From a virus (taxonomy: Duplodnaviria > Caudoviricetes), in the IMG/VR virus record IMGVR_UViG_3300020388_000010: a stretch of DNA of 64,000 bases; one strand, given 5' to 3'. Positions within the stretch are counted from its first letter, which is position 1. Each line of letters starts with the position of its first letter. The notes below the pieces were generated by a model. The model did no database searches. It was not told the DNA's origin and saw only the letters and a program-made list of their open reading frames with translations. Below, piece after piece: positions 2,069 through 62,490 of the stretch. The translations under genes were made by a program, and so were the position numbers.

Positions 2069-2146
2069 ATGGCTTGGTCAAAACCAACTATTACTGAAAT
2101 TTCAGTAGGTCTTGAAATTAATTCATACGCTTGCGCTGAGAAGTAA
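2069..2146 (+). CDS. pqqA: PQQ precursor peptide PqqA, MAWSKPTITEISVGLEINSYACAEK (not in track)
   Basis: 25 aa with a W-x-KP leader and the G-x-E-I-N-S-Y core (ExxxY), strong AGGAGA RBS upstream, terminator downstream. Confidence 0.9.
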   Translation: MAWSKPTITEISVGLEINSYACAEK

Positions 2147-2441: not shown

Positions 2442-3031
2442 TTCATATTATGGACGCCTTTAATGCATTTAAAATTTATATGGGTCTGAAAGCACACTTC
2501 AACTCAGACTATGACTTTACAAAGTATGGTGGTAAAACCAGAGCTAGTAAATCAAGTTATTTAAAAAGAAAAGACAAACATTTTTTTGGTAAAGTTGCAA
2601 GAAAATATGGTGATGAAACTCAAGACTTTTTTGTTTCTAATTTTTTAAGAAATGAAAAAGGATACATTGGAGAGTTTAATGATAGGAACTTTACAGATTG
2701 GAAAAAAAGACATCAATCATTAAGATATATGTTTGAACAAGATATGAACTTGTTGTTAAATCAAGTTACAAATTTTAATAAATTATTTACTGTTGAAAAC
2801 GGACAACACCCAATATTGTTTAGAAATTATTTATCACAAAGAATCAATATAGAAACAATGATTATATTAAACAAGTTAGTAAACTATCAAAAGGATTGGG
2901 ATAAACAAATAAGTGAAAACATCATCTGGCCTAATCATAGAAACAAATTAAATAATTACAATTCACTATTGACAATTAACGAAACAGAGTATAAAATGAA
3001 ACTCATTAACTTAACAAAAAGTAAAAAGTAA
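2438..3031 (+). CDS. gp59: gp59 helicase loader
   Basis: AFKIYMGLKAHF..YDFTKYGGK, KRKDKHFF, GQHPILF, INIETMIIL. Confidence 0.9.
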   Translation: MIHIMDAFNAFKIYMGLKAHFNSDYDFTKYGGKTRASKSSYLKRKDKHFFGKVARKYGDETQDFFVSNFLRNEKGYIGEFNDRNFTDWKKRHQSLRYMFEQDMNLLLNQVTNFNKLFTVENGQHPILFRNYLSQRINIETMIILNKLVNYQKDWDKQISENIIWPNHRNKLNNYNSLLTINETEYKMKLINLTKSKK

Positions 3032-3978
3032 TGCATATAATACCAATATACGATAAACAAGGTACAGAAGTAAACAGATTAGAAATAAACGATGATTTAA
3101 ATCATTGTGGTGGAAGGGTCTGGAAAGGTAAAGAACACTATTACAAAGGTTTAGGTATTCCTTACTCTCATCATCAATTACTAGAAAAAGATATTACAGA
3201 TGATTCTGAATTTGATATGATACAGAATACAAATATATTTTATCTAGGGTATCTTGTGTGTAGAAAAAATTGGAAGAATAAAGTAGGAATATTCCAAGAG
3301 AGATATCAACCATTTTTTCCAGATTTTATTGGTGCTTGTAGTGTTAAAGAAAAAACAATTACTGGTAACTCAAGAGGTTTTAAAAAGTCATCAGTTGATG
3401 TGATAGAAGTTATTAATTATGATGCAGTAAACAAACAGTATTATTTTAAAATGGATTATAAGTGTAAAAGAAAAAGTTATATTAAAGATGATGGTAAACC
3501 ACAAAAATTACAAGATTTATTAGAATATATGTTAGAAAGTGATTGGAACTTTCTGTGGGATAAAGGTGCAATCAATGATATAACACCAGAGGGTCTGGTG
3601 TCAGATGTAGCTGACCTATTTGAGTCAGATGAATTGCACCATCAATTAGGAACTGTATATTCAGTTTTATACAGTTTACACAATGTTAATGTACAAAAAT
3701 ATTTTGAGTTTCTTAAACATATGAAATTAGAACATAAGAATCAATCTTCTTTTATTACTAATTCCATATTGATTTTAGAGAATAATGGTATTGATACTTT
3801 ACCATTAAAACCTTTTAATGAAAATATGAAAAACTTTAAACATACAGTTTTGAATTTCTTATTACAAGGTAAAAATTGTGCATATTGTTCTTGTGATATG
3901 TTTATACACGAGGGTGATTTGGTCAGAGATGATTATGTACGAAAAGTATCAAAACAACTACAACACATACAATATTAA
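3031..3978 (+). CDS. Hypothetical protein with C-terminal CxxCxC
   Basis: 315-aa ORF with no recognised family. Confidence 0.7.
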   Translation: MHIIPIYDKQGTEVNRLEINDDLNHCGGRVWKGKEHYYKGLGIPYSHHQLLEKDITDDSEFDMIQNTNIFYLGYLVCRKNWKNKVGIFQERYQPFFPDFIGACSVKEKTITGNSRGFKKSSVDVIEVINYDAVNKQYYFKMDYKCKRKSYIKDDGKPQKLQDLLEYMLESDWNFLWDKGAINDITPEGLVSDVADLFESDELHHQLGTVYSVLYSLHNVNVQKYFEFLKHMKLEHKNQSSFITNSILILENNGIDTLPLKPFNENMKNFKHTVLNFLLQGKNCAYCSCDMFIHEGDLVRDDYVRKVSKQLQHIQY

Positions 3979-4507: not shown

Positions 4508-5418
4508 TGCAACAACTATCTTTATTGGATATTATAGTGAATAATAGTAAACTTAAAAATGTATTTGTACTTGGTAATGGTGAGTCCAGAGATGGATATG
4601 ACCTAAAACAATTTAGACAATGGGGAAAGATATATGGGTGCAATGCACTTTATAGGGATTTTCAACCAGACGGATTGATATCAACAGATTGGGCTATGAT
4701 GCACGAGATATATTCATCTGGTTATTGTTCTAATAACAAATGTTATTTTAGACAATGGAAACTGTTACCAGAACAATTCTTTGAGATGTTACAATATACT
4801 GGATTAGAACAATCAAGTATGGAACAACTGAATGAACAACTCAAGAGTTTAGATTTAGATACAGTAGATAAATTTTTACATCAAAATGAAAAAGGTTCTA
4901 GAACACAATTAGTTTGTCACGGAATAGACCCAGAGAGATTTAAAGATGCGATATTAGAAATATTATCAAAGTTTAAAGGATTACCGAAAGGTGATGTAAG
5001 ACAAAAACTAGGTAATGCTGGTTTATGGATTACTTGGGTAGATGATAATGATATGGCTGAAGATTTAGATACTTTCTTTGATGGTGAATTTATGGGTTGG
5101 AGTTCTGGCCCTACTGCTGTTAGAGTTGCAATAGAAGAAAATAAAGATATAGATAGCGTCTATATGTTAGGATTTGATATGCCAAGAGATGGTAAAGTAA
5201 ATAATGTGTATAAAGACACAGATTGTTACATTACTTCTGATTGTAAATATGTAAGTCCTATGAACTGGATAGAACAACACGAAAATAATTTTAAGAAATA
5301 TCCAGACAAAAAGTTTTACAGAGTTATAGATGATGGTTCTGAAATACCAGAATGGTCAGACTATAACAATGTGAAAACAATCACCTACGGAAATATGTGG
5401 GGTAGAGTGGTTGTATAA
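4507..5418 (+). CDS. Conserved phage protein with a Rossmann-like (MptE/GT29-like) signature
   Basis: VFVLGNGESR, IYGCNALYRDF.PD, WSSGPTA, VYMLGFD, NNVYKDT. Confidence 0.6.
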   Translation: MQQLSLLDIIVNNSKLKNVFVLGNGESRDGYDLKQFRQWGKIYGCNALYRDFQPDGLISTDWAMMHEIYSSGYCSNNKCYFRQWKLLPEQFFEMLQYTGLEQSSMEQLNEQLKSLDLDTVDKFLHQNEKGSRTQLVCHGIDPERFKDAILEILSKFKGLPKGDVRQKLGNAGLWITWVDDNDMAEDLDTFFDGEFMGWSSGPTAVRVAIEENKDIDSVYMLGFDMPRDGKVNNVYKDTDCYITSDCKYVSPMNWIEQHENNFKKYPDKKFYRVIDDGSEIPEWSDYNNVKTITYGNMWGRVVV

Positions 5419-15277: not shown

Positions 15278-15961
15278 GTGAAGACATTTGACCAACTACA
15301 AGAGGGTGTATACGACCCCAATATATTCAAAGCATTTTTTCTAGCAGGCGGGCCTGGTAGTGGTAAATCTTTTGTAGTAAGAAAGACCACTGGTGGGCTC
15401 GGTATGAAAGTTGTAAACTCTGATACTGCATTTGAAAAACTACTAAAAGATGCAGATATTGATTTAGACTTTAGAGATATGAGTCCAGAAAGAACTCTTG
15501 AGAGAGATAAAATAAGAAAGAGAGCAAAAGAAGTTACTGCAAAAATGCAAAAGAATTTTGTTGCTGGCAGACTTGGTTTGATTATAGATGGCACTGGTGC
15601 AGAATATGGTATAATAGAAACACAAAAAAAACTATTGCAACAATTAGGATATGATACCTATATGATTTTTGTCAATACATCACTAGATACTGCAATAGAA
15701 AGAAACAATAAAAGAGATAGAAAATTACCATTAGATATTGTTACAACATATTGGAATAATGTACAATCAAACATAGGTAAATTTCAAAGGTTATTTGGTA
15801 TGAAGAATTTTGTCGTTGTTGATAATAATAACCCAAAAGAAAATGTATTTAGAAGAGTATTTAAAACTATTAGAAATCTTGCAAACAAAAAGGTCAATAA
15901 TTATATTGCAAAACAATGGATTGATAATCAGTTAAGATTAAAAAAAATGTCAAAGGGTTGA
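15278..15961 (+). CDS. P-loop kinase (zeta-toxin/AAA_33-like) with capsid-targeting-like N-terminus
   Basis: GGPGSGKS Walker A, VNSD, LIIDGTG, MIFVNTSLDTAIERN. Confidence 0.8.
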   Translation: MKTFDQLQEGVYDPNIFKAFFLAGGPGSGKSFVVRKTTGGLGMKVVNSDTAFEKLLKDADIDLDFRDMSPERTLERDKIRKRAKEVTAKMQKNFVAGRLGLIIDGTGAEYGIIETQKKLLQQLGYDTYMIFVNTSLDTAIERNNKRDRKLPLDIVTTYWNNVQSNIGKFQRLFGMKNFVVVDNNNPKENVFRRVFKTIRNLANKKVNNYIAKQWIDNQLRLKKMSKG

Positions 15962-16572: not shown

Positions 16573-17088
16573 ATGATACAATTATACAAGAACATTTTAC
16601 CAGATGATTTGGTAAAAGACTTGTTGGATTATTATGAATCATATGAACCTATTGATTATGGTAATTTCACACAAGTTGAGATAGATACTAAACATAAACT
16701 TACAGACTATATGAAAGATATAGTTTATAAAGTTGCAGACCATTATTTTGAGTTGCACGATAAAACAAACCAACACCCAGAACCATTTGCATTAGAGGGT
16801 TTTAGGATAAAAAGGTATGAACCTAATAAAGGTAGTTTTCCTTGGCATACTGACGCTGGTAATATACAAAACTGCACAAGGTTTCTTGCATTGTTGTTTT
16901 ATTTAAATACAAGTGAAGCTGGTACTAAATTTGAAAAGACATATGTACCAGCAGAAAAAGGTAGTGTGGTTGTATTCCCACCAATGTGGATGTTCCCACA
17001 CGAGGGTGAGATGCCTAAGAAAAAACCTAAGTTTATAATGAGTACATATTTACACTTTATGGGGGTTGACAAATCAAGACAAGTGTGA
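16573..17088 (+). CDS. 2OG-Fe(II) oxygenase
   Basis: WHTD, LFYLN, GTKF, VVFPPMWMFPHEG, K..STY. Confidence 0.88.
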   Translation: MIQLYKNILPDDLVKDLLDYYESYEPIDYGNFTQVEIDTKHKLTDYMKDIVYKVADHYFELHDKTNQHPEPFALEGFRIKRYEPNKGSFPWHTDAGNIQNCTRFLALLFYLNTSEAGTKFEKTYVPAEKGSVVVFPPMWMFPHEGEMPKKKPKFIMSTYLHFMGVDKSRQV

Positions 17089-18827: not shown

Positions 18828-18835
18828 TATAAATA
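18828..18835 (+). promoter_or_regulatory. T4-type late promoter upstream of iscA
   Basis: TATAAATA. Confidence 0.65.
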
Positions 18836-18845
18836 TATTTAAGGA

Positions 18846-19172
18846 TTGTTTATGATTACTATAACAGAAAACGCAAAAAAATACTTGTACGACATTGCAA
18901 AAAAGAACGACAAGAAGTTTGTTTCTTTTGGTGTAAGTGGTGGTGGTTGTGCTGGTTTCAGTTACAAGTGGGATTATATAGATGAGCCTGATAAAGGACA
19001 TACTATATTTCACATAAAAGACGAAGTATCACTTGCAGTAGATAAAGTTGCAGAGATGTATATAATGGGTGCTGAAATAGATTATGTACAAGAGATAATG
19101 GGTAGTTTCCTAAAAATAAATAATCCACTCACAAAGTCAAGTTGTGGTTGTGGAGAATCTTTTAGTGTTTAA
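18846..19172 (+). CDS. iscA: A-type Fe-S carrier protein (IscA/HesB family)
   Basis: ITITENA, GGGCAGFSY, IDY, NP..SCGCGESF. Confidence 0.95.
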   Translation: MFMITITENAKKYLYDIAKKNDKKFVSFGVSGGGCAGFSYKWDYIDEPDKGHTIFHIKDEVSLAVDKVAEMYIMGAEIDYVQEIMGSFLKINNPLTKSSCGCGESFSV

Positions 19173-19470
19173 AAATGTGTTAACTGCAATATTGTTTAGA
19201 ATATTTGTAACAACGATAATATTTTTAATTATATGTTTCACTATTGGGGTTGCAGTATCAAGAGGAATAGACCCTAGTAAGGGTAGATATTATGGAGAAC
19301 GAAAAGAGTATTATGTATTTTGTAGAATATATGATGAGAAATTAGATAGAAGTAGAAAAGATGAAGAAAGAAAATGTTTTTATGAGTGTAGTGATAAAGA
19401 AACCGTTGTTGTTACAACAAGCATAGGTTATCCTTGTCAAAATAGTATTACAGAGAAGAGAAAACCATAA
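19144..19470 (+). CDS. Hypothetical exported Cys-containing protein (start uncertain)
   Basis: TM/signal segment followed by four Cys. Confidence 0.55.
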   Translation: MVVENLLVFKNVLTAILFRIFVTTIIFLIICFTIGVAVSRGIDPSKGRYYGERKEYYVFCRIYDEKLDRSRKDEERKCFYECSDKETVVVTTSIGYPCQNSITEKRKP

Positions 19471-19503
19471 ATATATATGCAATAACTATTGTAGGAGTTT
19501 TAA

Positions 19504-19896
19504 ATGGCGTACAGTAAACAATTATTAGACCATTATGAGAACCCAAGAAATGTTGGGACTTTAGATAAAAATAAGAAAAATGTAGGTACTGGTTTGGTAG
19601 GAGCGCCAGCGTGTGGTGATGTTATGAAACTTCAGATAGAAGTTAATGACAAAGGTACAATAACAGATGCAAAATTTAAAACATTTGGATGTGGTTCTGC
19701 AATAGCCAGTAGTTCGCTAGTTACTGAGTGGCTGAAAGGAGCTCACATTGACGATGCACAATCAATTAAAAACACCGAGATTGCAACCGAACTTGCACTT
19801 CCCCCAGTTAAGATACATTGTTCAGTTCTTGCTGAAGATGCTGTCAAGTCTGCGATCTCTGATTATAAAAGAAAGTGCAGTTGTGATGATAGCTAG
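19504..19896 (+). CDS. iscU: Fe-S cluster scaffold IscU
   Basis: MAYS..LLDHYENPRNVG, GAPACGDVM, FKTFGCGSAIAS, LPPVKIHCS. Confidence 0.98.
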   Translation: MAYSKQLLDHYENPRNVGTLDKNKKNVGTGLVGAPACGDVMKLQIEVNDKGTITDAKFKTFGCGSAIASSSLVTEWLKGAHIDDAQSIKNTEIATELALPPVKIHCSVLAEDAVKSAISDYKRKCSCDDS

Positions 19897-20026
19897 TTCA
19901 TTCTGTTCAAATTGTGGCCACGATTCTCATTGTGGAACAAGGTATGTAGATGACATAGACAGAAGTGGAAATGAAATAGAAATTTGTAAGTATTGTAGAT
20001 GTGAAAAATGCCAAGACAGAGATTAA
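19886..20026 (+). CDS. Small Cys/His-rich metal-binding protein
   Basis: CSNCGHDSHCG...ICKYCRCEKC; start moved from the track's 19748. Confidence 0.65.
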   Translation: MIASSFCSNCGHDSHCGTRYVDDIDRSGNEIEICKYCRCEKCQDRD

Positions 20027-20217
20027 AGGGACAAAAACCCATAGAATCGTTTGACATTTTTCACGGATATGACCAAGATTTGAATACTTGGTTTGTGGAA
20101 ATTCAGATACCGAAATTCGGTAGTGGACAAATATTAGAATGGTTTAAAACAGAAGAGGCATACGAAAAGAGAATTAAAGAATTAAGGTACACATTGTATG
20201 ATATACAATGGGATTAA
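20008..20217 (+). CDS. Hypothetical protein
   Basis: ORF in operon. Confidence 0.6.
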   Translation: MPRQRLKGQKPIESFDIFHGYDQDLNTWFVEIQIPKFGSGQILEWFKTEEAYEKRIKELRYTLYDIQWD

Positions 20218-20278
20218 TTTCTTTACTTTTTGTATGCCTCATTATTACTCTTATGTGGAGAGATTAACACATAATTAG

Positions 20279-20286
20279 TATAAATA
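20279..20286 (+). promoter_or_regulatory. T4-type late promoter upstream of the leader ORF and sdhB
   Basis: TATAAATA. Confidence 0.65.
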
Positions 20287-20374
20287 GTAGTACCATCCAT
20301 ATGGTTCAAAAGTGGCTGATAGTCCATCAGTTAAAAGGGCGTAATGTTCAAATTAATAGCAAAAGGAGAATATT

Positions 20375-20491
20375 ATGCAAATTACAAAGAACATAATAAA
20401 ATTTAATAGCTTTCTAATAAGTATTCCTAGACAAATGAAGGGTCTGTGGGATAAATCTGAAAACCGTTGGGGTTATAAACCAAAAAAATAA
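20375..20491 (+). CDS. 38-aa ORF preceding sdh[39 protein letters not shown] (not in track)
   Basis: Strong AAGGAG RBS; its stop is 1 nt before the sdhB ATG. Confidence 0.7.
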
Positions 20492-20492
20492 T

Positions 20493-21239
20493 ATGTTTGA
20501 ACTACCTAATAATTCAAAGATAATGAAAGGTAAATCGTTTGGAACTAAAAAGAATTTAGTTGTAAACATTTATCGTTGGAATCGTGAAAGTGGAAATAAT
20601 CCTAGTATTGACACTTATCATTTAGATAAATCAAAAATGGGGCCTATGTTGTTAGATGCGATTATGCACATTAAAAACAATGTAGACCCCACACTTACAT
20701 TTAGAAGAAGTTGTAGAGAGGGTATTTGTGGTAGTTGTTCTATGAACATCAATGGTACAAATACTCTTGCGTGTTTAACACCTATTGATAAGAAAGAATA
20801 CAACATCTATCCATTACCACATATGAGTGTCATAAAAGATTTGGTTGTGGACTTAGAACCATTCTTTGAACAATACAAAAGTATCAAACCATATGTCGTT
20901 ACTGGTAAGAAACCTAAAAAAGAACATATACAATTACCAGAGGATAGAAAAAAGTTAGACGGATTGTATGAGTGTATATTATGTGCCTGTTGTTCTACCT
21001 CGTGTCCTAGTTATTGGTGGAATAGTGATAAGTTTCTAGGGCCTGCAATACTACTACAAGCATATCGTTTCATAGTAGATAGTAGAGATAAGAATAAAAA
21101 AGAAAGACTTAAACAATTAAACGATGCATTTAAATTATATCGTTGTCATACTATAATGAACTGTACCAAGACTTGTCCTAAAGGTCTTAATCCAGCGAAA
21201 GCGATTTCTGAAATCAAGAAATTACAAGTGTCAAATTAA
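20493..21239 (+). CDS. sdhB: Succinate dehydrogenase iron-sulfur subunit
   Basis: [59 protein letters not shown]; alpha-type LPNNSKI N-terminus. Confidence 0.98.
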
Positions 21240-21288
21240 AAAGACCGTCATTTTCTTGACATCTAATAAATATTATTAGGAGAGAGAA

Positions 21289-21432
21289 ATGTTAGAAATA
21301 ATCAATTCATTATGGCCTATGTTTATAGGTTTTATAACACTAGTAGTAGTGTTATCACAAATGTATATGAGAATCCAAGTATTAGAAGAAAAGGTTAAAA
21401 CCCTTTTTGACTTACACAATAAATCCAAGTAA
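21289..21432 (+). CDS. Small single-TM protein (not in track)
   Basis: AGGAG RBS; MLEIINSLWPMFIGFITLVVVLSQMYMRIQVLEEKVKTLFDLHNKSK. Confidence 0.65.
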   Translation: MLEIINSLWPMFIGFITLVVVLSQMYMRIQVLEEKVKTLFDLHNKSK

Positions 21433-21548
21433 GTTGTAGTTCTACAACAATCCAAAAATAATTTAAAATAATTTAAAAAAAGACTTGACTTGTTATTAAA
21501 ACAATGTTAAGATCAAGACATAATCAAGAAAGAAAGGCAATAATAATT

Positions 21549-21824
21549 ATGAAAGAAAGTTATAAAATGAATCAAATGGAAAGAATAGAACACAAAAAAA
21601 AGATTGAGAAGTGGTCTAAGGATAATGTACAAAAATTACTAATGGGTAATGATTGGTTAAAGAGTGGTGAGTATACACCAAGTAGAAAACTACAAGAAAA
21701 TGTTAGTTGGTTTGAATTAGAATCAATGTCATTGAATAAGTTTTTAGAACTTGCAGATTTAGTTACAGCTGAGTCGCCAGGAACTTATACTTTAAATGAT
21801 TTAGTTAGAAAATTAGCAAAATAA
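21549..21824 (+). CDS. Early hypothetical protein
   Basis: Follows a promoter cassette; start moved from 21504. Confidence 0.65.
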   Translation: MKESYKMNQMERIEHKKKIEKWSKDNVQKLLMGNDWLKSGEYTPSRKLQENVSWFELESMSLNKFLELADLVTAESPGTYTLNDLVRKLAK

Positions 21825-21899
21825 TTTAAAAAAAGACTTGACATTGTTGTCAAAACATAGTACAATATAAACATAATCAAAAAAGAAAGAGAAAAAAAT

Positions 21900-22316
21900 A
21901 TGAAAAGTTATGTAAGTTTAGAGAGAGCTAAATCAGTTGACAAAGATACATTGATTGATAGTGCATTTAAAAAGTTCAACAAACAAAATGTTGACAAGAA
22001 CGGCGACTATATCAAGTATAGTGATTTAGAACAAAACTTTGACGGAGTTACTCAAATGTATGAGGGTCTTAATGAGTTAGAAGATGCATTGATTGATTAC
22101 ATTGAAGTTATACAAACTGTTAAAGGTGTAGTTAAGGATAAGTTAAAAGACGGAAACTTCAAAACTGATGATAAGGTTAAAGACAAGTTGTTCTATGAAG
22201 TTCAAGATTTACAAACTTATGCAAATCAATGGTTGCCTGATTATTCTGGTAATGTTGTTAGTGGTTTTAACAAACTTGTTGGAGATACTGACGAAGAACA
22301 TTTTCACCAACTTTAA
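21900..22316 (+). CDS. Early hypothetical protein
   Basis: Follows a promoter cassette. Confidence 0.7.
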   Translation: MKSYVSLERAKSVDKDTLIDSAFKKFNKQNVDKNGDYIKYSDLEQNFDGVTQMYEGLNELEDALIDYIEVIQTVKGVVKDKLKDGNFKTDDKVKDKLFYEVQDLQTYANQWLPDYSGNVVSGFNKLVGDTDEEHFHQL

Positions 22317-22385
22317 TAAAAAAAGACTTGACAATGTTCTTAAAACAAAGTATAATAGTAATATAATCAAGAAAGAAAGGTAATT

Positions 22386-22610
22386 ATGAATAAAAAAGAT
22401 GCACTAAAATGTATAGATTTAGTTCTAAATGAACAAGCAAGTTTAGCTGGTCAATATCCAGAGGGAAATTACTATGGAGAATTTGCAGTTATTTGTAAGA
22501 AGTATAACATTGACCCAGAAACACATTGGGAAAATGTTTTAGATGGAATGTATAACCCAGATGTAGAAGGTTATACTGTTAACAATGGAGGTGAATATGT
22601 CAAAAACTAG
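22386..22610 (+). CDS. Early hypothetical protein
   Basis: Follows a promoter cassette, AAGG RBS. Confidence 0.65.
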   Translation: MNKKDALKCIDLVLNEQASLAGQYPEGNYYGEFAVICKKYNIDPETHWENVLDGMYNPDVEGYTVNNGGEYVKN

Positions 22611-22961
22611 AAGAGTTTGGAAAAATTTGGGTTATCCCCACTATGCAAGTAGAAAGTTTACACCAGAAGAATACAAGGTGTATGTAAAGAACAATAACAA
22701 GATTTTTGAGTATACAGGCGAGGACAATATCGTATCTGTTACTGAAAAAGAATATAAACTACCATTTTAAAGAGGACAATATGAACGAAGATGAAATGAA
22801 AATCACATTACCTCCAGTTTATTGGAATCAATATAGACTACAAAAAGTAATCAACAAAGAAATTGATACTCTTGTAGACAATAAAATCATAGATAAAAAT
22901 GATTTTTAACTTGACATTGTTGTTAAAACATAGTATAATATTAATATAATGAAAAAAGAAA

Positions 22962-23174
22962 GTGAGTAAAATTATGACAAAAAGAATGGAAGCTGGTTAT
23001 ACAGTAGAAGAAATACAAGATATTATTCAAGGTGCAATAGATACTGCCAATGACGATAAAGGTTATGGAGTAGAAGGTGCATTAGATGATTTGTATTCTT
23101 TGGTGCAAGATTTAGATGAACACCAAAACATTGAGATACCATTAGTTGGTGAGGGTAATAGTGCCACTCAGTAA
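22962..23174 (+). CDS. Early hypothetical acidic protein
   Basis: Follows a promoter cassette. Confidence 0.6.
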   Translation: MSKIMTKRMEAGYTVEEIQDIIQGAIDTANDDKGYGVEGALDDLYSLVQDLDEHQNIEIPLVGEGNSATQ

Positions 23175-23287
23175 TCAAAAAAAGGTTCAGTTGTTGAACA
23201 AGATATACAATGACATTGACAAAGCACTATTGAAACAAGATTTCAGTAGAATAAAAACATTACAAAAAAGAAAGAGTAGATTATATA

Positions 23288-23644
23288 ATGATTAACAGTA
23301 GTAATTATGAGAATCAAAAGAAATTAGGTATACCATTTTTTGCAGTACCTAATACATTTAAACATTTCACAGACCCAGGCCACGGTTGGTATAGGGTATC
23401 AAGAGAGATGTTATTTAAAATGGATATACTAGATAAGATTTCTAGTTATTCATATCAAAAAGGTGATTGGGTTTATTTAGAAGAAGATTGTGATGCAACG
23501 ATATTCTTTGATAGGTATAAAGAGTTATTTGGTGATGAGTATCAAATCAAAATCACTCAGAATATCGCAAACAATATGAGTTCTATAAGATACTACCATC
23601 ATTTTCAGATGGGTGTTGGTAGTGGTATTCCTAAACCGATTTAG
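23288..23644 (+). CDS. Conserved phage/mobile-element hypothetical protein
   Basis: TDPGHGW.V, ISSYSY, VYLEEDCDA motif set. Confidence 0.7.
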   Translation: MINSSNYENQKKLGIPFFAVPNTFKHFTDPGHGWYRVSREMLFKMDILDKISSYSYQKGDWVYLEEDCDATIFFDRYKELFGDEYQIKITQNIANNMSSIRYYHHFQMGVGSGIPKPI

Positions 23645-23676
23645 AGTAAGAAAATTTTTCACATATACATATTAGT

Positions 23677-23859
23677 ATGGGAAGAATAATATCATTCGCC
23701 GAACACCGAGAGAGGATTAAACTAGAGAAGATAAGAGAGCATCTTAATACTTCTTTAGGACTTAATCTCTCACAGAAATCGGTGAAGTTTTTATTCACAC
23801 CCCCAGACGACATAATGGAGAAATGGTATGACAAGCCCAAAGAAGTCAAAGATACTTAA
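23677..23859 (+). CDS. Hypothetical protein
   Basis: ORF on the coding strand. Confidence 0.5.
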   Translation: MGRIISFAEHRERIKLEKIREHLNTSLGLNLSQKSVKFLFTPPDDIMEKWYDKPKEVKDT

Positions 23860-23936
23860 TTTCAAACACGCTCAGAATCGTAAGTTTAACGAGGACAACA
23901 CAGTTGAATTTACAACAGATGATGAGGAATTGACAT

Positions 23937-24155
23937 TTGAATTTGAATTGGAAGAAGATGAAAAGGATAATATTCACTAAACAAAAAGAGTGTTTATTTC
24001 TTGACATATATGCGAATACTGTTGGGTTAGTCTATGACCCAGAGGAAAATTCATTTGCACGAGAAGTATTCTGTATAGATGCAAGTAATATGAGATATAT
24101 TGAACAGCAGATGAGTCTACACGGATTTCGTAGAATGTATAACCTAATGAGTTAA
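23937..24155 (+). CDS. Hypothetical protein (start uncertain)
   Basis: ORF on the coding strand. Confidence 0.5.
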   Translation: MNLNWKKMKRIIFTKQKECLFLDIYANTVGLVYDPEENSFAREVFCIDASNMRYIEQQMSLHGFRRMYNLMS

Positions 24156-24165
24156 GGAGAGAGAA

Positions 24166-24351
24166 ATGGGTTATGAGGATATTCATAGAGGAGTAACCAA
24201 AATTTTACAAGACACTAAAGAGAAAACAATCAAAGTTACAAAAGAAGTTGTTAGTTGTGATAACGGACACCCAGTGGTATATATTAATGTACCATTTGAT
24301 CAGATAATGAGATGTCCTTATTGTAATCTCGCATATGAGAGAATAAAATGA
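24166..24351 (+). CDS. zf-CHCC zinc-finger protein (NDUFS6/NUMM-like)
   Basis: VVSCD.GHPVVYI......CPYC; AGGAG RBS. Confidence 0.85.
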   Translation: MGYEDIHRGVTKILQDTKEKTIKVTKEVVSCDNGHPVVYINVPFDQIMRCPYCNLAYERIK

Positions 24352-24497
24352 AGTGGAATAAACCAAGTATAGAAGAGAAACAATTAGGTCAGTTTTCAGA
24401 CAAACCTAAGAAACCAAAAGAAATAAACGGCCCTAACGGACTAGAACCCACTCGGTATGGAGATTGGGAACGCAAGGGTATATGTTATGATTTCTAA
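24348..24497 (+). CDS. DUF1674 / succinate dehydrogenase assembly factor 4 (SDHAF4/Sdh8)-like protein (not in track)
   Basis: MKWNKPSIEEKQLGQFSDKPKKPKEINGPNGLEPTRYGDWERKGICYDF*, with the hallmark EPTRYGDWERKG...DF; ATGA overlap with zf-CHCC. Confidence 0.93.
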   Translation: MKWNKPSIEEKQLGQFSDKPKKPKEINGPNGLEPTRYGDWERKGICYDF

Positions 24498-24599
24498 ACT
24501 GATTGGTGGATTTAAAGAAGGATATGAAATGACAAACTTTGAAGGTAACCCAGATAATTGGAATGGTAAAGGTGATAAGAATGGATATACTGAGGGTAA

Positions 24600-25154
24600 A
24601 TGGTTAGCACAAAGAAAGAGATAAACTTTATAGAATCGTATACTTGCGATTTAGATTTTTCTTTCCTTAGACAAAAACACGAGTATCTCGTAGAGGGAGT
24701 CGTAAAGACTCATTATGGTCTAGAGGTAGATAAATCAGTAAAGAGTTGTAAAGAATACGGAATCAATCCAGAGAGTCCGTTAATCGTTCCTTATCGTAAT
24801 CATTTACAAGAATGCCTAAACGATTATGTACAGAAGTATGACCTACTAAACAAACACCCACATTTTAATATCTATGATGTAATCAATTATCAACGATATG
24901 ATAAGGGAGAAGGATATTATGATTGGCACTTTGAGAACTTTGACTGTGGTCGTGTAATCGTGTTTATGACTTATCTTACGAATACATCTGATGCCGGAAC
25001 TGAATTTCTCTATCAGAATATAAAGACTGAATGTGTTAAGGGAACAACTATATTATGGCCTGCGTATTGGACTCATACTCATAGAGGTATTATATCAAAA
25101 AAACATAGAAAAGAGATATTAACTGGTTGGTTCTCTACTAGAGCTCCGTCCTAG
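24600..25154 (+). CDS. 2OG-Fe(II) oxygenase
   Basis: WHFE, FMTYL, GTEF, LWPAYWTHTHRG, KEILTGW. Confidence 0.88.
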   Translation: MVSTKKEINFIESYTCDLDFSFLRQKHEYLVEGVVKTHYGLEVDKSVKSCKEYGINPESPLIVPYRNHLQECLNDYVQKYDLLNKHPHFNIYDVINYQRYDKGEGYYDWHFENFDCGRVIVFMTYLTNTSDAGTEFLYQNIKTECVKGTTILWPAYWTHTHRGIISKKHRKEILTGWFSTRAPS

Positions 25155-25332
25155 AGATACATTGACTGCGTACCACGACATTTCTGTTATTTTCATCAAT
25201 AAATGCAAGGTTAAAGATGTATTCTAACTCTAAACATATTTGATGTGATTCCATATACATTTCAATAGAATAAGACTTACTTTCTTCTTCAAACGATATA
25301 AAAACAATAAGTGCGAGAATAAATGACTGCAT
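25138..25332 (-). CDS. Small secreted two-Cys protein in inverted orientation
   Basis: Signal-like N-terminus, ESHQIC...SQC; late-promoter-like CTAAATA upstream. Confidence 0.55.
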   Translation of the reverse strand: MQSFILALIVFISFEEESKSYSIEMYMESHQICLELEYIFNLAFIDENNRNVVVRSQCISRTEL

Positions 25333-25530
25333 AGTTCTATTTAGTTCATTTCCGTAAGAATATTAAAAAGGTTAAAATAAAGTGTATGTGGTGTTCATTT
25401 GATTTCAACATTTATCGTTGCAAAAATACAACAACTCTGAGAAAAATTACGAAAAAAATAAAATAACACTTGACTTGTTCTTAAAACAATGGTACTATAG
25501 AGACATAATTAAAAAAGAAAGGGAATAATT

Positions 25531-25839
25531 ATGTTTAATTTTGTAACAAATCGTGAATACACTGGTCAGAACTATGATGTGCTGAGCGCTTCTGGTAAAG
25601 GTGAAGAGTTTGCTGGATTCCATCAAGGTAAGAAATTCTTTGGTGTAAAGGGAACTGACCTTAAAGGTATCAAGGCAGCCGCCGCTGTGATGTTCGTTGT
25701 TAAGAAAACGAAGGAAGATGGAGATGAGTCTAAGTCTATTAGATATAAGTCTGTGTTTGCAAAGTCTGACTTTGAACAAGCGATTGCTCGTAATAAGGTT
25801 CTTAATCCGAATAGGAAAGTAGAAACTATTTCTGAGTAG
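25531..25839 (+). CDS. ArdC-like N-terminal ssDNA-binding domain protein
   Basis: NFVTNREYTGQN, FAGFHQ, KG, YKSVF match the ArdC/DUF1738 pattern. Confidence 0.6.
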   Translation: MFNFVTNREYTGQNYDVLSASGKGEEFAGFHQGKKFFGVKGTDLKGIKAAAAVMFVVKKTKEDGDESKSIRYKSVFAKSDFEQAIARNKVLNPNRKVETISE

Positions 25840-25907
25840 AGGCCTTGACAAGGGGCCCTACTTAGTGTTATACTATACTTGTATTTAATGAGAAAGGTTT
25901 AAATAAT

Positions 25908-26144
25908 ATGTATGAAACAGATAGATATAAACCATTAGGTTTAACATTGAATCAAAGATTAAACTTTGTATATAACAATGGTATCTCAGATGATATTAAA
26001 CTGTCTGGTACTGTGAAAGAAATAGTATGTACAGACAAAAATGGAAAGAAGTTCTCCTATGTTGAGGTTCTTTCTGATAATGGTCTAGCTCACTTTCTAG
26101 TACCCAACTCAAATGGTGAGTGGCAGTCAACGGCAGAATACTAA
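25908..26144 (+). CDS. Hypothetical protein
   Basis: sigma70 promoter and GAAAGG RBS upstream. Confidence 0.6.
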   Translation: MYETDRYKPLGLTLNQRLNFVYNNGISDDIKLSGTVKEIVCTDKNGKKFSYVEVLSDNGLAHFLVPNSNGEWQSTAEY

Positions 26145-26156
26145 GAGGTTAGGGTT

Positions 26157-26216
26157 AGAAGTCTTACTGGAGCTCTTCGGAGTTAGGTGTTTTCGGAACA
26201 CACTGCATAGACTTCT
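26157..26216 (+). ncRNA. Unassigned structured RNA (three-way junction with two UUCG hairpins)
   Basis: AGAAGTCT/AGACTTCT closing stem, AGCTC-TTCG-GAGTT and GTGTT-TTCG-GAACAC hairpins, intergenic. Confidence 0.6.
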
Positions 26217-26395
26217 CTTACTTATGGGTGGGGGTCAAAACTGACAACAGTTTGGTAATCTATAAATGCAATAAAGATACGGAGAACTATTTTGGTTAAT
26301 AAAGAAGATATACTGAAAAGAATTAAAAGGGATATGAGAGATAAAGGGTTTCTCAATAAATATAGTGGGTGTATGACTAAGAAAAGGAATGACAA

Positions 26396-26557
26396 ATGAA
26401 CTGTTGGCATTGTGATACAGAATTAATCTGGGGAGGCGACCACGACATATCAGAAGATAACGAAGACTATCAGATGGTTACGAATCTATCGTGTCAGAAC
26501 TGTGGATGTCTGGTAGAGGTTTACCTACCCCACCCCCCTAAAACTGAGAGTAATTGA
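26396..26557 (+). CDS. Small zinc-ribbon protein (not in track)
   Basis: MNCWHCDTELIWGGDHD...TNLSCQNCG.LVEVY. Confidence 0.75.
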   Translation: MNCWHCDTELIWGGDHDISEDNEDYQMVTNLSCQNCGCLVEVYLPHPPKTESN

Positions 26558-26581
26558 TTTGCACTACCCTATATATAAAAT

Positions 26582-26731
26582 ATGAGTATTATTTCAACTC
26601 CTTGCATCAAAGTATGCAGACTAGTCAGTAATAAGTGTGAAGGTTGCAACAGAACTTTCAATCAAATACAGAACTGGCTATCATATTCCGAGAACAAAAG
26701 AAAAAGAATAATGGAGAAGTTAAATGGATAA
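26582..26731 (+). CDS. DUF1289/YdhL-like predicted Fe-S protein (not in track)
   Basis: STPCIKVC......CEGCNRT..QI.NW..YSE..R..IM. Confidence 0.85.
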   Translation: MSIISTPCIKVCRLVSNKCEGCNRTFNQIQNWLSYSENKRKRIMEKLNG

Positions 26732-28888: not shown

Positions 28889-29115
28889 TGGATAGAGATA
28901 GAATATGTGTGTTAATTTTAGTTGTAATGTTTGCAACACTTTACCTTGTAGGAAGTTAATATGTGTGGTTGGTATGCACAAGAGATAGATAATGGACGAA
29001 AGAATAAACAAAATACACCACGAACTACAAAACCACTTCTCAAGCGAAGTACCAAACCCATACAATTACCCTAAATGTTTTTGGTATTATTTAAAAGTTT
29101 ACAAGTTTGATAGAG

Positions 29116-29757
29116 ATGAAGGTAGAGTTAATAGATAAAATGGGTACGGACTTGTCTGTAGTAAATGCAGCTAGAGTTTCGTATGCAAAAATAAAAGAAG
29201 AATTTGAAAGAACAGATGAACGATTAATTCGTTATCTTGCAGAACATAAGCACTGGTCGCCCTTCGCACATACCTTTCTTTCTTTTCGCATAAAGGCGCC
29301 AGTGTTTGTGGCTAGACAGTTGGTTAAACATCAAGTGGGTTTAGTCTGGAATGAAGAAAGTCGTAGGTATATTTCTGATGACCCAGAAATTTATAATATT
29401 CGTAAGTGGAGAGAGAAACCAGAGAGTAGTAAGCAGGGAAGTGGAGAACAGATTCTAATATCCCAAGAACTCAATCTAGAAGTGAGTGAACATTTACAAC
29501 AAGGTTTAAGTTTATATAATCGTTTACTACTAGAAAATGTTGCACCAGAACAAGCTCGTGCAGTATTACCACAGAGTATGTATACTAATTGGATATGGTC
29601 TGGAACTCTTTACGCATTTGCGAGAGTATGTGAGTTGCGTTTAGATGCACATTCACAAAAAGAAACTCAAGAGATTGCACAGCAATTAAATATTCATTGT
29701 CAAGATGCGTTTCCGATTAGTTGGAAATACTTGACAAAAGAAAAAGATGAGGTATAA
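29116..29757 (+). CDS. thyX: Flavin-dependent thymidylate synthase
   Basis: VVNAARVS, H.HWSPF, ARQLVKH...WNEESRRY, APEQARAVLP, HSQKE. Confidence 0.95.
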   Translation: MKVELIDKMGTDLSVVNAARVSYAKIKEEFERTDERLIRYLAEHKHWSPFAHTFLSFRIKAPVFVARQLVKHQVGLVWNEESRRYISDDPEIYNIRKWREKPESSKQGSGEQILISQELNLEVSEHLQQGLSLYNRLLLENVAPEQARAVLPQSMYTNWIWSGTLYAFARVCELRLDAHSQKETQEIAQQLNIHCQDAFPISWKYLTKEKDEV

Positions 29758-42752: not shown

Positions 42753-43261
42753 TGGGAACATTAACAGTAGATAATTTAAATGTAAACAGTACAGCTAGTA
42801 TTACTAGTGGAGTAGGAATAGTTCTACAACAAATAACTGGTGCTGTGGTAAAAGCAACTTTTACTTCTTCAATACCAGATGATGATACAACTCCCACAGT
42901 TTCAGAAGGAACAGAAATTTACTCACAAGCAATAACACCGAGTTCTACTTCAAATAAAATTTTTATAACTGGTTCTATTGAGGGTTCAAGTTCTGCTGCT
43001 AATGGGTGGGGTATTACTGTTTTTAGAGGAAGCACTTGTATATTAACTGTTCATCAAACTAATGCTATGGGTGGTGGTCAGCCAAATCAATGTAATATTA
43101 ATGTTTTAGATTCACCTAGTTCAACATCAGCAGTAACATATTCAATTAGAGCTGGTTGTATGGCAGGGTCTTCAGCAATTTATGTACAAAGAAGAAGTTC
43201 AGAAAAATATAATGGAACAATGGCTTTAAATTCCGTAACACTTCAAGAGATAAAAGGTTAG
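42752..43261 (+). CDS. Putative fibre subunit
   Basis: MGTLTVDNL, ITPSSTSNKI, DSPSSTSAVTY, TLQEI. Confidence 0.7.
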   Translation: MGTLTVDNLNVNSTASITSGVGIVLQQITGAVVKATFTSSIPDDDTTPTVSEGTEIYSQAITPSSTSNKIFITGSIEGSSSAANGWGITVFRGSTCILTVHQTNAMGGGQPNQCNINVLDSPSSTSAVTYSIRAGCMAGSSAIYVQRRSSEKYNGTMALNSVTLQEIKG

Positions 43262-43265
43262 TAAT

Positions 43266-43634
43266 ATGAATATAGCAAAATTATTAGAATACTATTGGCC
43301 TGGTTGTTTATGGGAGTTAGTGGGTAATGACCAAACTGATTATAAAAATTTAACTTGGTTAGACAAATCAACAACGAAACCAACAGAATCAGAATTATTA
43401 GCAAAAAAAGATGAGGGTGAACTTCGTGAAGCATTAGATGAAATAAGACCAATAAGAAATAGACTTTTAAGAGAAAGTGATTGGACACAAATGCCAGACA
43501 TAAGTGACTCTAGAATGGATAGTACAACTAAAGGTAAATGGCAAGTGTATAGAGAAGAATTAAGAGATTTAACAAAAGGATTAGATACTGTTGACAAAGT
43601 AAAAAAAGTTACTTGGCCAACAGAACCAAGTTAG
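43266..43634 (+). CDS. Tail fibre assembly chaperone
   Basis: RNRLLRESDWTQ, W..YREELRDL, TWPTEP. Confidence 0.85.
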   Translation: MNIAKLLEYYWPGCLWELVGNDQTDYKNLTWLDKSTTKPTESELLAKKDEGELREALDEIRPIRNRLLRESDWTQMPDISDSRMDSTTKGKWQVYREELRDLTKGLDTVDKVKKVTWPTEPS

Positions 43635-43642
43635 GAAAATAA

Positions 43643-44440
43643 ATGGCATATATTGGAAAAGAACCTTCGTTTGGTGCATTTGAGAAAGACATCTTTACTG
43701 GTGATGGTTCAACTACACAATTTACTTTGACTCACACAGTTGCATCTGCAACATCTATGATTGTTTCTTTAGGTGGTGTTATTCAAGAGCCTGGTAGTGC
43801 ATATGATATTGCAATGGTGAGTGGTGTACAAAAAATTAATTTTGCTTCTGCTCCAGCAAACTCTGTAAGATGTTTTGTAGTTTATCTTGGTAGACAACAA
43901 ATAGTTCAAGCAAGAGCAGCCACAGATACAACTCCTACAATAGATACATTTACTGGAGGAAGTGGAACAACTGCATTTACTTTATCTAGAGTTCCTCAAA
44001 ACCCATCATCAACTGTAATTGCATTTGTGAATGGTGTGTTTCAAAAATATACAACAAACTTTTCAATCGCTGGTACAACTATAACTTTTACTTCTGCACC
44101 AGAAACATCTGCTGTCATAGTGGTAGTTCATTTATCAACAACAAACGAAGTTAATTTAGGTTCTCCAGATGATAATTCAGTAGGTACTGCAAAAATTCAA
44201 GACAACGCAGTAACAAATGCAAAAGCAGCTTTCACTTATACATCATCTTATTTTACTGGTGATGGTTCAACAACTGCATTTACAATTACTACTGGACATA
44301 CAGTAAATAGTGTTATAGTTACAGAAAATGGAGTTATGCAAAAACCAACAACCGATTATGGTGTGTCTGGTACAACCTTAACTTTTACAACTGCACCATC
44401 CAATACAGTACAAATTGGTGTTAGATATTTAGTGGTATAG
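43643..44440 (+). CDS. Structural protein with FTGDGSTTxF repeats
   Basis: MAYIG start; three repeated beta modules. Confidence 0.75.
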   Translation: MAYIGKEPSFGAFEKDIFTGDGSTTQFTLTHTVASATSMIVSLGGVIQEPGSAYDIAMVSGVQKINFASAPANSVRCFVVYLGRQQIVQARAATDTTPTIDTFTGGSGTTAFTLSRVPQNPSSTVIAFVNGVFQKYTTNFSIAGTTITFTSAPETSAVIVVVHLSTTNEVNLGSPDDNSVGTAKIQDNAVTNAKAAFTYTSSYFTGDGSTTAFTITTGHTVNSVIVTENGVMQKPTTDYGVSGTTLTFTTAPSNTVQIGVRYLVV

Positions 44441-61830: not shown

Positions 61831-62490
61831 ATGAATACATTTACAGACTCAGAGATTGATACTCTGGAACTTCCTAAAAAAGAGGAAGAAAAAAAAGAAG
61901 AACCCCAAGAAAAAAATATTGTTGAACCAGATGATAAAAATATTGTCAAACTGGTAGGTAATAAAAATATAGTTTCTATATTAACATCACAGTTTTTTGC
62001 AGAAAAAGAATGTGATGCAATAGTAAAAGAAACAGTTAAAGAATTATGGGTTGATAGTTCATTAAAAGGTGTGAGAAAAGCAACACAACAATCTTTACCT
62101 ATGAACGATAAAGGTTGGCCCTATACTAAAGTGTTAGAACTTGCACAACAAGCTAATGATAAAAATTTTAAAATGCAACTTGCTGGTTTTTATCAAGCAG
62201 ACAATCCACAAATAGTTTGTTATAAGAACAAAAACTTCTATAATTATCATTTAGACATTGGAAACAATGCACCATTTAGAAAATTAACTTTTATTATTCA
62301 ATTATCTGACACCAAAGATTATGATGGTGGGCATATTGAATTAATGAATATGACTACGGATAATAAATTATTTAGACAAAAAGGTCAAATAATTATATTC
62401 CCATCTTTTGTTCCTTGGCGTGTTACTAAAGTTACAAAGGGTGTAAGAAATTGTATTGAGGGTTGGTTACACGGCCCAAGTTATGTATGA
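61831..62490 (+). CDS. 2OG-Fe(II) oxygenase (prolyl-hydroxylase-like; distal His replaced by Trp)
   Basis: YHLD, RKLTFIIQLS, YDGG, IFPSFVPWRVTKVTKGVR; promoter TTGACA-N17-TATAAT at 61784. Confidence 0.85.
   Translation: MNTFTDSEIDTLELPKKEEEKKEEPQEKNIVEPDDKNIVKLVGNKNIVSILTSQFFAEKECDAIVKETVKELWVDSSLKGVRKATQQSLPMNDKGWPYTKVLELAQQANDKNFKMQLAGFYQADNPQIVCYKNKNFYNYHLDIGNNAPFRKLTFIIQLSDTKDYDGGHIELMNMTTDNKLFRQKGQIIIFPSFVPWRVTKVTKGVRNCIEGWLHGPSYV

Follow-up and report, generated by a model that had tools for sequence, protein, structure and literature searches.

Why would a phage encode one iron-sulfur (Fe-S) subunit of a respiratory complex, and with it the proteins that build Fe-S clusters? This question is raised by a 64-kb stretch of the virus record IMGVR_UViG_3300020388_000010 (hereafter the window; all coordinates count from its start), which is part of a T4-type myophage of the pelagimyophage/Melnitz-like kind. 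The window encodes SdhB, the Fe-S subunit of succinate:quinone oxidoreductase (complex II), together with IscU, IscA, a DUF1674 peptide similar to the complex II assembly factor SDHAF4, a zf-CHCC protein, a DUF1289 protein, and the precursor peptide PqqA. Judged from their sequences, these are probably auxiliary metabolic genes (AMGs) that came from the host lineage and are kept because each can complement parts of the host's respiratory apparatus for which the phage has no genes.

A preliminary description had listed iscA, iscU, sdhB, zf-CHCC, DUF1674, and DUF1289 as intact genes, with pqqA elsewhere in the window. The six genes were indeed found intact at the coordinates below, and they as well as pqqA scored above the Pfam curated cut-offs (gathering scores) by which family calls were judged:

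18852–19172, plus strand: iscA, A-type Fe-S carrier, 106 aa (Fe-S_biosyn, E = 3.6e-14, 53.4 bits against a cut-off of 26.3)
19504–19896, plus strand: iscU, Fe-S scaffold, 130 aa (NifU_N, E = 4.4e-52, model positions 1–126 of 127)
20493–21239, plus strand: sdhB, Fe-S subunit of succinate:quinone oxidoreductase, 248 aa (Fer2_3, E = 1.3e-32, and Fer4_17/8/10)
24166–24351, plus strand: zf-CHCC, NDUFS6/NUMM-type zinc finger, 61 aa (PF10276, E = 1.8e-8, 34.7 bits against a cut-off of 27)
24348–24497, plus strand: DUF1674/SDHAF4-like peptide, 49 aa (PF07896, E = 6e-18, 65.4 bits against a cut-off of 23.5)
26582–26731, plus strand: DUF1289, YdhL-type four-cysteine protein, 49 aa (PF06945, E = 2.1e-14, 53.5 bits against a cut-off of 27)
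2069–2146, plus strand: pqqA, 25-aa pyrroloquinoline quinone (PQQ) precursor peptide with an E-x3-Y core (PF08042, E = 1.2e-7, 32 bits against a cut-off of 21.1)

SdhB was full length, with an N-terminal Fer2_3 domain and a C-terminal dicluster domain, and residues 23–245 matched the mitochondrial SDHB structure (chicken 1YQ3_B, E = 4e-101). All 11 cluster cysteines were present (Cys74/79/82/94 for the [2Fe-2S] cluster, Cys161/164/167/228 for [4Fe-4S], and Cys171/218/224 for [3Fe-4S]). Read from the translations, IscU keeps Cys37, Asp39, Cys63, His105, and Cys106 as well as the LPPVK chaperone-binding motif (residues 99–103), and the C-Xn-C-X-C triad of IscA is complete (Cys33, Cys98, and Cys100). 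The true ATG of iscA is at 18852, and the TTG listed at 18846 is upstream of it. The zf-CHCC protein keeps its ligands (Cys31, His35, Cys50, and Cys53) and has weak matches to 2JRR and to NDUFS6 chains; the end of its gene overlaps the start of DUF1674 by 4 nt. DUF1289 has four N-terminal cysteines (Cys8, Cys12, Cys19, and Cys22), and no solved structural relative of it was found. Overexpression of Escherichia coli ydhL gave resistance to H2O2 and HOCl in a screen (PMC8228696). As had been described, sdhA, sdhC, and sdhD are missing: tblastn detected none across the window or at any of about 70 related viral loci, and SdhB is thus not encoded together with its partner subunits there. There is also no pqqB–E in the window.

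Since every gene of this set has close cellular homologs, the region could be an assembly chimera or contaminating host DNA. This reading is already refuted by the neighboring genes and by the relatives. Upstream of the region are a gp48-type tail-tube cap gene and tail genes, and downstream are gp5, gp6, gp7-like, and gp8-like baseplate genes (PHROG profiles); gp59 and gp32 were recognized in the window by Pfam. Identity of the gp6 homolog is 53% with its counterpart in OM43 phage Melnitz, 48% with that in pelagiphage Mosig, and 46.5% with that in HTVC008M. The GC content is uniform at 30–34% over the region. Independent IMG/VR contigs from six metagenomes (L002, L003, L004, L007, L015, and L125), with up to 24 ORFs (open reading frames) in common with the window, show the set joined to baseplate and small phage genes in the same way, and in L002, L004, L007, and L015 a single contig holds both sdhB and the gp48-type tail-tube cap and tail genes upstream. 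Furthermore, the phage copies form a clade of their own, 22–24% from any cellular sequence, and phage-type promoter motifs are present. The genes are therefore dispersed among phage ORFs, as first described, and are not a bacterial fragment. The region had no megablast match to deposited phages, and G001, the record nearest to the window, is a 47-kb fragment that lacks sdhB. ARAGORN predicted neither a tRNA nor a tmRNA over the whole window. The variable region is bordered by genes for an AAA_33/zeta-toxin-like P-loop kinase (15278–15961) and the flavin-dependent thymidylate synthase ThyX (29107–29757).

Where did the genes come from? In a maximum-likelihood tree, the phage SdhB sequences formed a single clade (UFBoot 99, SH-aLRT 93), so the phage-specific clade anticipated in the preliminary description was recovered for this protein. 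Its sister group consists of cellular SdhB with 73–78% identity (joint support 100/100). The sister sdhB genes are in sdhC-sdhD-sdhA-sdhB operons, after which come AFG1, nadA, mdh, and sucC; the contigs are as long as 1.48 Mb, and the genomes that carry them are those of streamlined marine alphaproteobacteria (1.0–1.5 Mb, ~30–32% GC). Based on these genome sizes, the GC content, and the kinship of the phage, the host is probably a streamlined marine alphaproteobacterium of the SAR11 type. Metagenome-assembled genomes (MAGs) labelled Pelagibacteraceae (L081 and L091) had a more distant SdhB (62–65%) and only a partial NifU_N match.

The same lineage has counterparts of the other genes. Its IscU is 77–81% identical to phage IscU (25 of 41 genomes, relatives of the host-like genome G002), and PqqC was above the cut-off in 20 of the 41 genomes. 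In G002, a pqqA-like ORF is followed by four ORFs of pqqB/C/D/E-like size, of which only PqqC was confirmed by a model, and the PqqA heading this cluster is identical to phage PqqA at 22 of 25 residues (88%). DUF1674, zf-CHCC, and DUF1289 are also carried by the host lineage; the C-terminal half of phage DUF1674 is 85% identical to the host copy, and zf-CHCC in host genome G004 lies between ABC transporter ATPase-like and polA-like ORFs (read from the translations). These sequence comparisons support derivation of the phage genes from the host lineage.

Selection on the genes was purifying rather than relaxed. Pairwise Nei-Gojobori dN/dS among phage copies was 0.09 for sdhB, the strongest constraint of the set, 0.14 for iscU, 0.15 for iscA, 0.22 for DUF1289, 0.30 for DUF1674, and 0.46 for zf-CHCC; these ratios are rough because the synonymous distances are near saturation. 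Among 95 near-invariant SdhB columns (conservation of 97% or more across 91 cellular sequences), 88 are kept in 13 of 13 phage copies, and the sole universal change in such columns is W134Y, presumably the E. coli state too.

The genes also travel together in related phages, often with small ORFs that adjoin them in the window:

19177–19470, plus strand: 97-aa membrane-anchored, cysteine-containing ORF that accompanies iscA
19886–20026, plus strand: 46-aa ORF with eight cysteines, whose start overlaps the stop of iscU and which is conserved among close relatives
20375–20491, plus strand: 38-aa ORF with a strong Shine-Dalgarno sequence, its stop 1 nt ahead of the sdhB ATG (dN/dS 0.29)
24600–25154, plus strand: 2-oxoglutarate (2OG)-Fe(II) oxygenase directly after DUF1674 (2OG-FeII_Oxy_3, E = 3e-7)

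In close relatives the block consists of iscA, the 97-aa membrane protein, iscU, the 46-aa eight-cysteine protein, a 69-aa ORF, the 38-aa ORF, and sdhB. The 97-aa ORF was always found with iscA in phage relatives and adjoins it in L002–L004, L007–L011, L013, L015, L125, and L150. Pfam gave nothing for the 97-aa, 46-aa, 38-aa, and 69-aa ORFs, and protein-atlas look-ups of the 97-aa and 46-aa ORFs gave unnamed viral clusters or chance-level matches only. Viral loci were fetched by bait, 22 with sdhB and 45 with DUF1674; their counts lack phylogenetic independence, and many of the contigs are short. The co-occurrence expected from the preliminary description was seen: 11 of the 14 phage-clade sdhB loci also have iscA or iscU, and L003 and L004 carry all six genes, with zf-CHCC, DUF1674, and DUF1289 beside the iscA–sdhB block. 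Among the DUF1674-bait loci, 13 of 45 have iscU or iscA. By comparison, any Fe-S assembly gene was found in 16 of 1,352 marine viral genomes (PMC5332604).

More distant phages keep parts of the set in other surroundings. The diverged T4-like contigs L008–L013 have iscA, iscU, and sdhB, and some of them DUF1289, DUF1674, or zf-CHCC; gene orientation differs there, and the genes adjoin gp59/gp32 homologs. In L006, a phage-clade sdhB is beside ribonucleotide reductase, primase, and exonuclease genes, and L005, which has a near-identical sdhB, has no other gene in common with the window. In L014, a phage-clade sdhB overlaps at its stop with the start of a gene for a 109-aa c-type cytochrome (5048–5377; Pfam Cytochrom_C, a CxxCH motif, and a signal-like N-terminus), and genes for the ribonucleotide reductase small subunit, asparagine synthase, and a DegT aminotransferase are nearby. 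Thus, phage-clade sdhB persists across at least three genomic contexts. Viral zf-CHCC adjoins DUF1674 or sdhB, in loci fetched with those genes as bait; a viral-contig bait search with zf-CHCC gave one locus and with DUF1289 two, by a pattern-limited method. The sole deposited phage with both sdhB and iscU is C48C1 (Kyanoviridae, OQ984149.1, L001). Its SdhB (record positions 43111–43818, 53% identity) is 2 kb from a NifU-like gene, falls on a separate branch with L020 and L021, and is annotated as 'hypothetical protein'; this label, and the length of only 25–49 aa of three members of the set, are a warning for annotation. Contigs labelled as giant-virus MAGs (L016, L017, L019, and L023) encode SdhB of 58–63% identity with N-terminal extensions, again on a separate branch. 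In L023 the protein appears interrupted (two pieces), and no sdhA lies within 10 kb of the giant-virus-labelled sdhB genes.

The most original element of the finding, and the strongest single link between its parts, is a natural fusion of IscA with DUF1674. In L128 (2428–2943), a 171-aa protein joins Fe-S_biosyn (residues 30–124) to DUF1674 (136–171). Such fusions are 167–171 aa long and were also found in L129, L162 (10001–10504), and the proteins P0121 and P0122, in two protein clusters; no other DUF1674 fusion recurred when longer proteins were searched for. One of them is on a 97-kb marine phage contig of the PolA/DnaB/primase type, with iscU 1.3 kb downstream. This phage also has NAD-ligase and ribosomal protein S21 genes and is unrelated to the window phage. 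In the fusion, Fe-S delivery is physically linked with a complex II factor.

The DUF1674 peptide itself aligns without gaps to human SDHAF4 (8DYD_C, E = 6.6e-9), and its E25, E33, D48, and F49 correspond to human E84, E92, D107, and F108. The C-terminal motif EPTRYGDWERKGICYDF ends in Asp-Phe, and D48 and F49 are invariant in the family alignment. In human SDHAF4, mutagenesis showed that these four residues matter, their mutation abolishing function; E84 and E92 contact SDHA R171, and strict conservation of D107 and F108 extends to homologs in proteobacteria (PMC10784507). The C-terminus is a dicarboxylate mimic that closes off the SdhA active site and intrudes on the surface where SdhB docks (PMC10784507). 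A predicted complex of host-type SdhA (L024) with FAD and the phage peptide scored 0.01, with the partner disordered, which speaks neither for nor against binding. We know of no experimental study on the function of bacterial SDHAF4 homologs and of no bacterial or viral member shown to bind a bacterial SdhA. At no fewer than 20 of 80 fetched cellular loci, the gene immediately upstream of sdhC is that for DUF1674. A DUF1674-sdhCDAB unit was observed in many gammaproteobacterial and some other cellular loci (L026–L087, at about 3000–3400).

The preliminary description had also suggested that iscA, iscU, and sdhB, each behind a promoter-like motif, belong to the T4-type late program. The relevant motifs are as follows:

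18828–18835, plus strand: late-promoter-like motif TATAAATA, 17 nt before iscA
19466–19473, plus strand: late-type motif CATAAATA, 31 nt before iscU
20279–20286, plus strand: late-promoter-like motif TATAAATA, 89 nt before the 38-aa ORF and 207 nt before sdhB
21838–21866, plus strand: sigma-70-type promoter TTGACA-17-TACAAT, the first of a series (22328, 22911, and 25845)

TATAAATA is as frequent in the window as chance predicts (12 against 11.5 expected), and only its placement is informative: 6 of the 12 have a same-strand start no more than 60 nt downstream, against 4.3% expected (P ~5e-6, with a crude gene set), and three further ones are so placed once small or open-ended ORFs are counted. 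In the close relatives, NATAAATA is conserved in position. The iscU motif is kept at −38 to −40 in six of seven of them, the motif ahead of the 38-aa ORF at −92 to −98 in all seven, and AATAAATA is found 13 nt before iscA in L002, L015, and L125. The diverged relatives have NATAAATA 13–15 nt before iscU and sdhB (at −13 of iscU in L008, L009, and L012) despite unrelated flanks and a different genomic place. Because the position of the motif is conserved even there, the late-type reading is well founded for iscA, iscU, and sdhB. It did not extend to zf-CHCC, DUF1674, and DUF1289: between 21250 and 27500 there is no late motif near these genes, and perfect or near-perfect sigma-70-type promoters are at 21838, 22328, 22911, and 25845. 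Therefore, the set is not one late regulon and is split over two programs, with the latter three genes behind early promoters. From these motifs we infer the timing of expression of the genes. An early-promoter layout, CTTGAC(A/T)-17-TAnnnT, is repeated before many small ORFs (21485, 21838, 22328, 22911, 25470, 25845, and 27454).

How might the products work? If they act as their families suggest, phage SdhB would assemble into complex II with host SdhA, SdhC, and SdhD. The DUF1674 peptide would act like SDHAF4, its C-terminal Asp-Phe capping flavinylated free SdhA until SdhB docks. IscU and IscA, using the host cysteine desulfurase, would build and deliver the clusters (nine iron atoms' worth) for SdhB and other Fe-S proteins. 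PqqA might be a stoichiometrically consumed substrate for host PqqB–E, and zf-CHCC and DUF1289 may be small metal-binding helpers. The net outcome would be that capacities for tricarboxylic acid (TCA) cycling and respiration in the infected cell are sustained or raised, which would be most useful when iron is scarce. When pelagiphage HTVC027P infects SAR11, host TCA, oxidative-phosphorylation, and iron genes go up (PMC12753301). Since infection raises those genes, respiration and iron are plausibly limiting and a benefit to the phage is plausible. By analogy with cyanophage psbA, it is a plausible inference that respiration is kept running after host shut-off, as the preliminary description had proposed.

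Several observations weigh against this proposal. L125 is ~99% identical to the window over 20 ORFs and lacks sdhB and zf-CHCC, and thus the kit of the preliminary description is not obligatory. An alignment of L125 (6892–7221) with the window (20375–21432) is 100% identical to the end of the 38-aa ORF and then has a gap over sdhB, of which the last ten or so bases remain (GTCAAATTAA); the 38-aa ORF, iscA, and iscU are retained. With an identical flank and a remnant of the tail, sdhB was lost from L125 by deletion, and this clean deletion makes sdhB an accessory gene. The cultured relatives HTVC008M, Mosig, and Melnitz have neither sdhB nor iscU (tblastn). Within the available flanks, sdhB was present in just 3 of the 45 DUF1674-bearing viral loci, and since most of these contigs show no sdhB, DUF1674 need not act via phage SdhB. 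Moreover, IscA (33–43%), zf-CHCC (27–30%), and DUF1289 (37–43%) have low identity to the host-lineage copies, which makes their origin and role less certain. Finally, an excess of an SDHAF4-like peptide could inhibit complex II rather than help it, because SDHAF4 occludes the SdhA active site and the SdhB docking surface.

The last point leads to a decidedly unlikely alternative, in which the phage takes over complex II by inhibition: DUF1674 would block the dicarboxylate site of SdhA and surplus SdhB would titrate SdhA off its membrane anchor, so that the TCA cycle is re-routed or shut. The SDHAF4 C-terminus that mimics a dicarboxylate also clashes with the position of SdhB (PMC10784507), and viral DUF1674 is far more widespread than sdhB (45 against 22 loci), mostly without it. 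However, a decoy needs neither the cluster ligands nor the 88 near-invariant columns, including the motifs around the cluster cysteines, that phage SdhB keeps; the links to IscU/IscA, PqqA, and cytochrome c point to capacity building, and host TCA and oxidative-phosphorylation genes rise rather than fall in pelagiphage infection (PMC12753301). It is also very unlikely, in our view, that IscU and IscA simply supply Fe-S clusters to phage or host replication enzymes and that SdhB, DUF1674, and the rest are loose passengers of a hyperplastic region. Many marine T4-like genomes do have Fe-S assembly genes without sdhB (PMC5332604), L125 kept iscA and iscU when it lost sdhB, and the region is in a variable stretch crowded with small early genes. 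A loose passenger, however, is hard to reconcile with an sdhB that is the most constrained gene of the set and persists in one phage clade over its different contexts, or with the fusion of IscA to a complex II factor.

A further alternative starts from the oxygenases. Turnover of a 2OG oxygenase converts 2OG to succinate, succinate inhibits these enzymes, and succinate dehydrogenase (SDH) catalyzes the first step back towards 2OG. Complex II capacity might thus be raised mainly to clear or recycle succinate from phage 2OG-Fe(II) dioxygenases, which we consider unlikely as the main role. The window has four such oxygenases (399–938, 16573–17088, 24600–25154, and 61831–62490). One is directly after DUF1674 in the window, L115, and L125 and ~1.7 kb away in the unrelated L154, L156, and L157, and a weak 2OG-oxygenase match is just upstream of sdhB in L014. 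These enzymes are common in marine T4-like phages, so the adjacency may be due to chance, and the oxygenase-adjacent loci were fetched with DUF1674 as bait; PqqA and cytochrome c would be left unexplained. We still favor AMGs that support host respiration.

A bolder form of the proposal, which we offer tentatively, is that phages of streamlined marine heterotrophs carry a dedicated complex II biogenesis set, in which an SDHAF4-like hub on SdhA recruits the Fe-S carrier. That the carrier may be recruited to the site where SdhB is loaded is suggested by the natural IscA-DUF1674 fusion. If true, this would be the first evidence that a bacterial-type DUF1674 couples Fe-S delivery to SdhA-SdhB assembly, and it would mark a phage-driven control point at complex II, possibly tied to recycling succinate from phage 2OG dioxygenases. 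The fusion and the widespread viral DUF1674 also give a handle on the bacterial homologs of SDHAF4.

AMGs let ocean phages reshape the chemistry of infected cells, and examples from photosynthesis, nucleotide, phosphate, and Fe-S metabolism are known. The window extends this idea to respiration in the type of heterotroph that is most abundant in the sea: a subunit of complex II, part of the respiratory chain, travels with an assembly factor, with proteins that build clusters, with a PQQ precursor, and in one relative with a cytochrome c. Variants of nearly one phage with and without sdhB offer a natural test of its benefit, for example along iron gradients.

The closest known system is the set of Fe-S assembly AMGs of Nishimura et al. 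2017 (PMC5332604, which also cites earlier virome surveys), who found iscU and A-type carriers in uncultured marine T4-like phages related to HTVC008M; there too the genes were read as support of Fe-S supply, and relatives were often without them. In contrast to the window, no SDH genes were reported (the word 'succinate' is absent from the paper), and IscU was placed with gammaproteobacteria, while the IscU described here shares 77–81% identity with that of the alphaproteobacterial host lineage and is linked to sdhB, DUF1674, zf-CHCC, DUF1289, and PqqA. A comparative study of pelagimyophages mentions none of these genes, and a poorly targeted literature search found no paper on viral DUF1674/SDHAF4. 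Virome tables of KEGG Orthology (KO) terms also assign sdhB to viruses (Roux et al. 2013, PMC3877843; Hurwitz et al. 2013, PMC4053976; PMC13720004), but as list entries without genome context, phylogeny, or partners. The giant-virus SDH genes likewise place SdhB on virus-labelled contigs, but on a separate branch of the SdhB tree.

Similar to human SDHAF4/Sdh8 (8DYD and 8DYE), the phage peptide belongs to Pfam DUF1674, and 20 of its 26 C-terminal residues are identical, including the SDHA-binding residues; unlike it, the peptide is phage-encoded, only 49 aa long, without a targeting sequence, and in one phage fused to IscA. Similar to cyanophage psbA/psbD, sdhB encodes one subunit of a host membrane energy complex in a T4-like phage, relies on the host for the other subunits, evolves under purifying selection, and groups in a clade of phage sequences. 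However, the target here is the respiratory complex II, for which no argument from rapid turnover of SdhB is established, sdhB comes with an assembly factor and cofactor builders, and it is accessory even among near-identical genomes. Thus, Fe-S assembly genes of marine phages are already published, while the complex II part is essentially undescribed; new here are the IscA-DUF1674 fusion, the cytochrome c beside sdhB in another phage, and the near-identical phage from which sdhB has been cleanly deleted.

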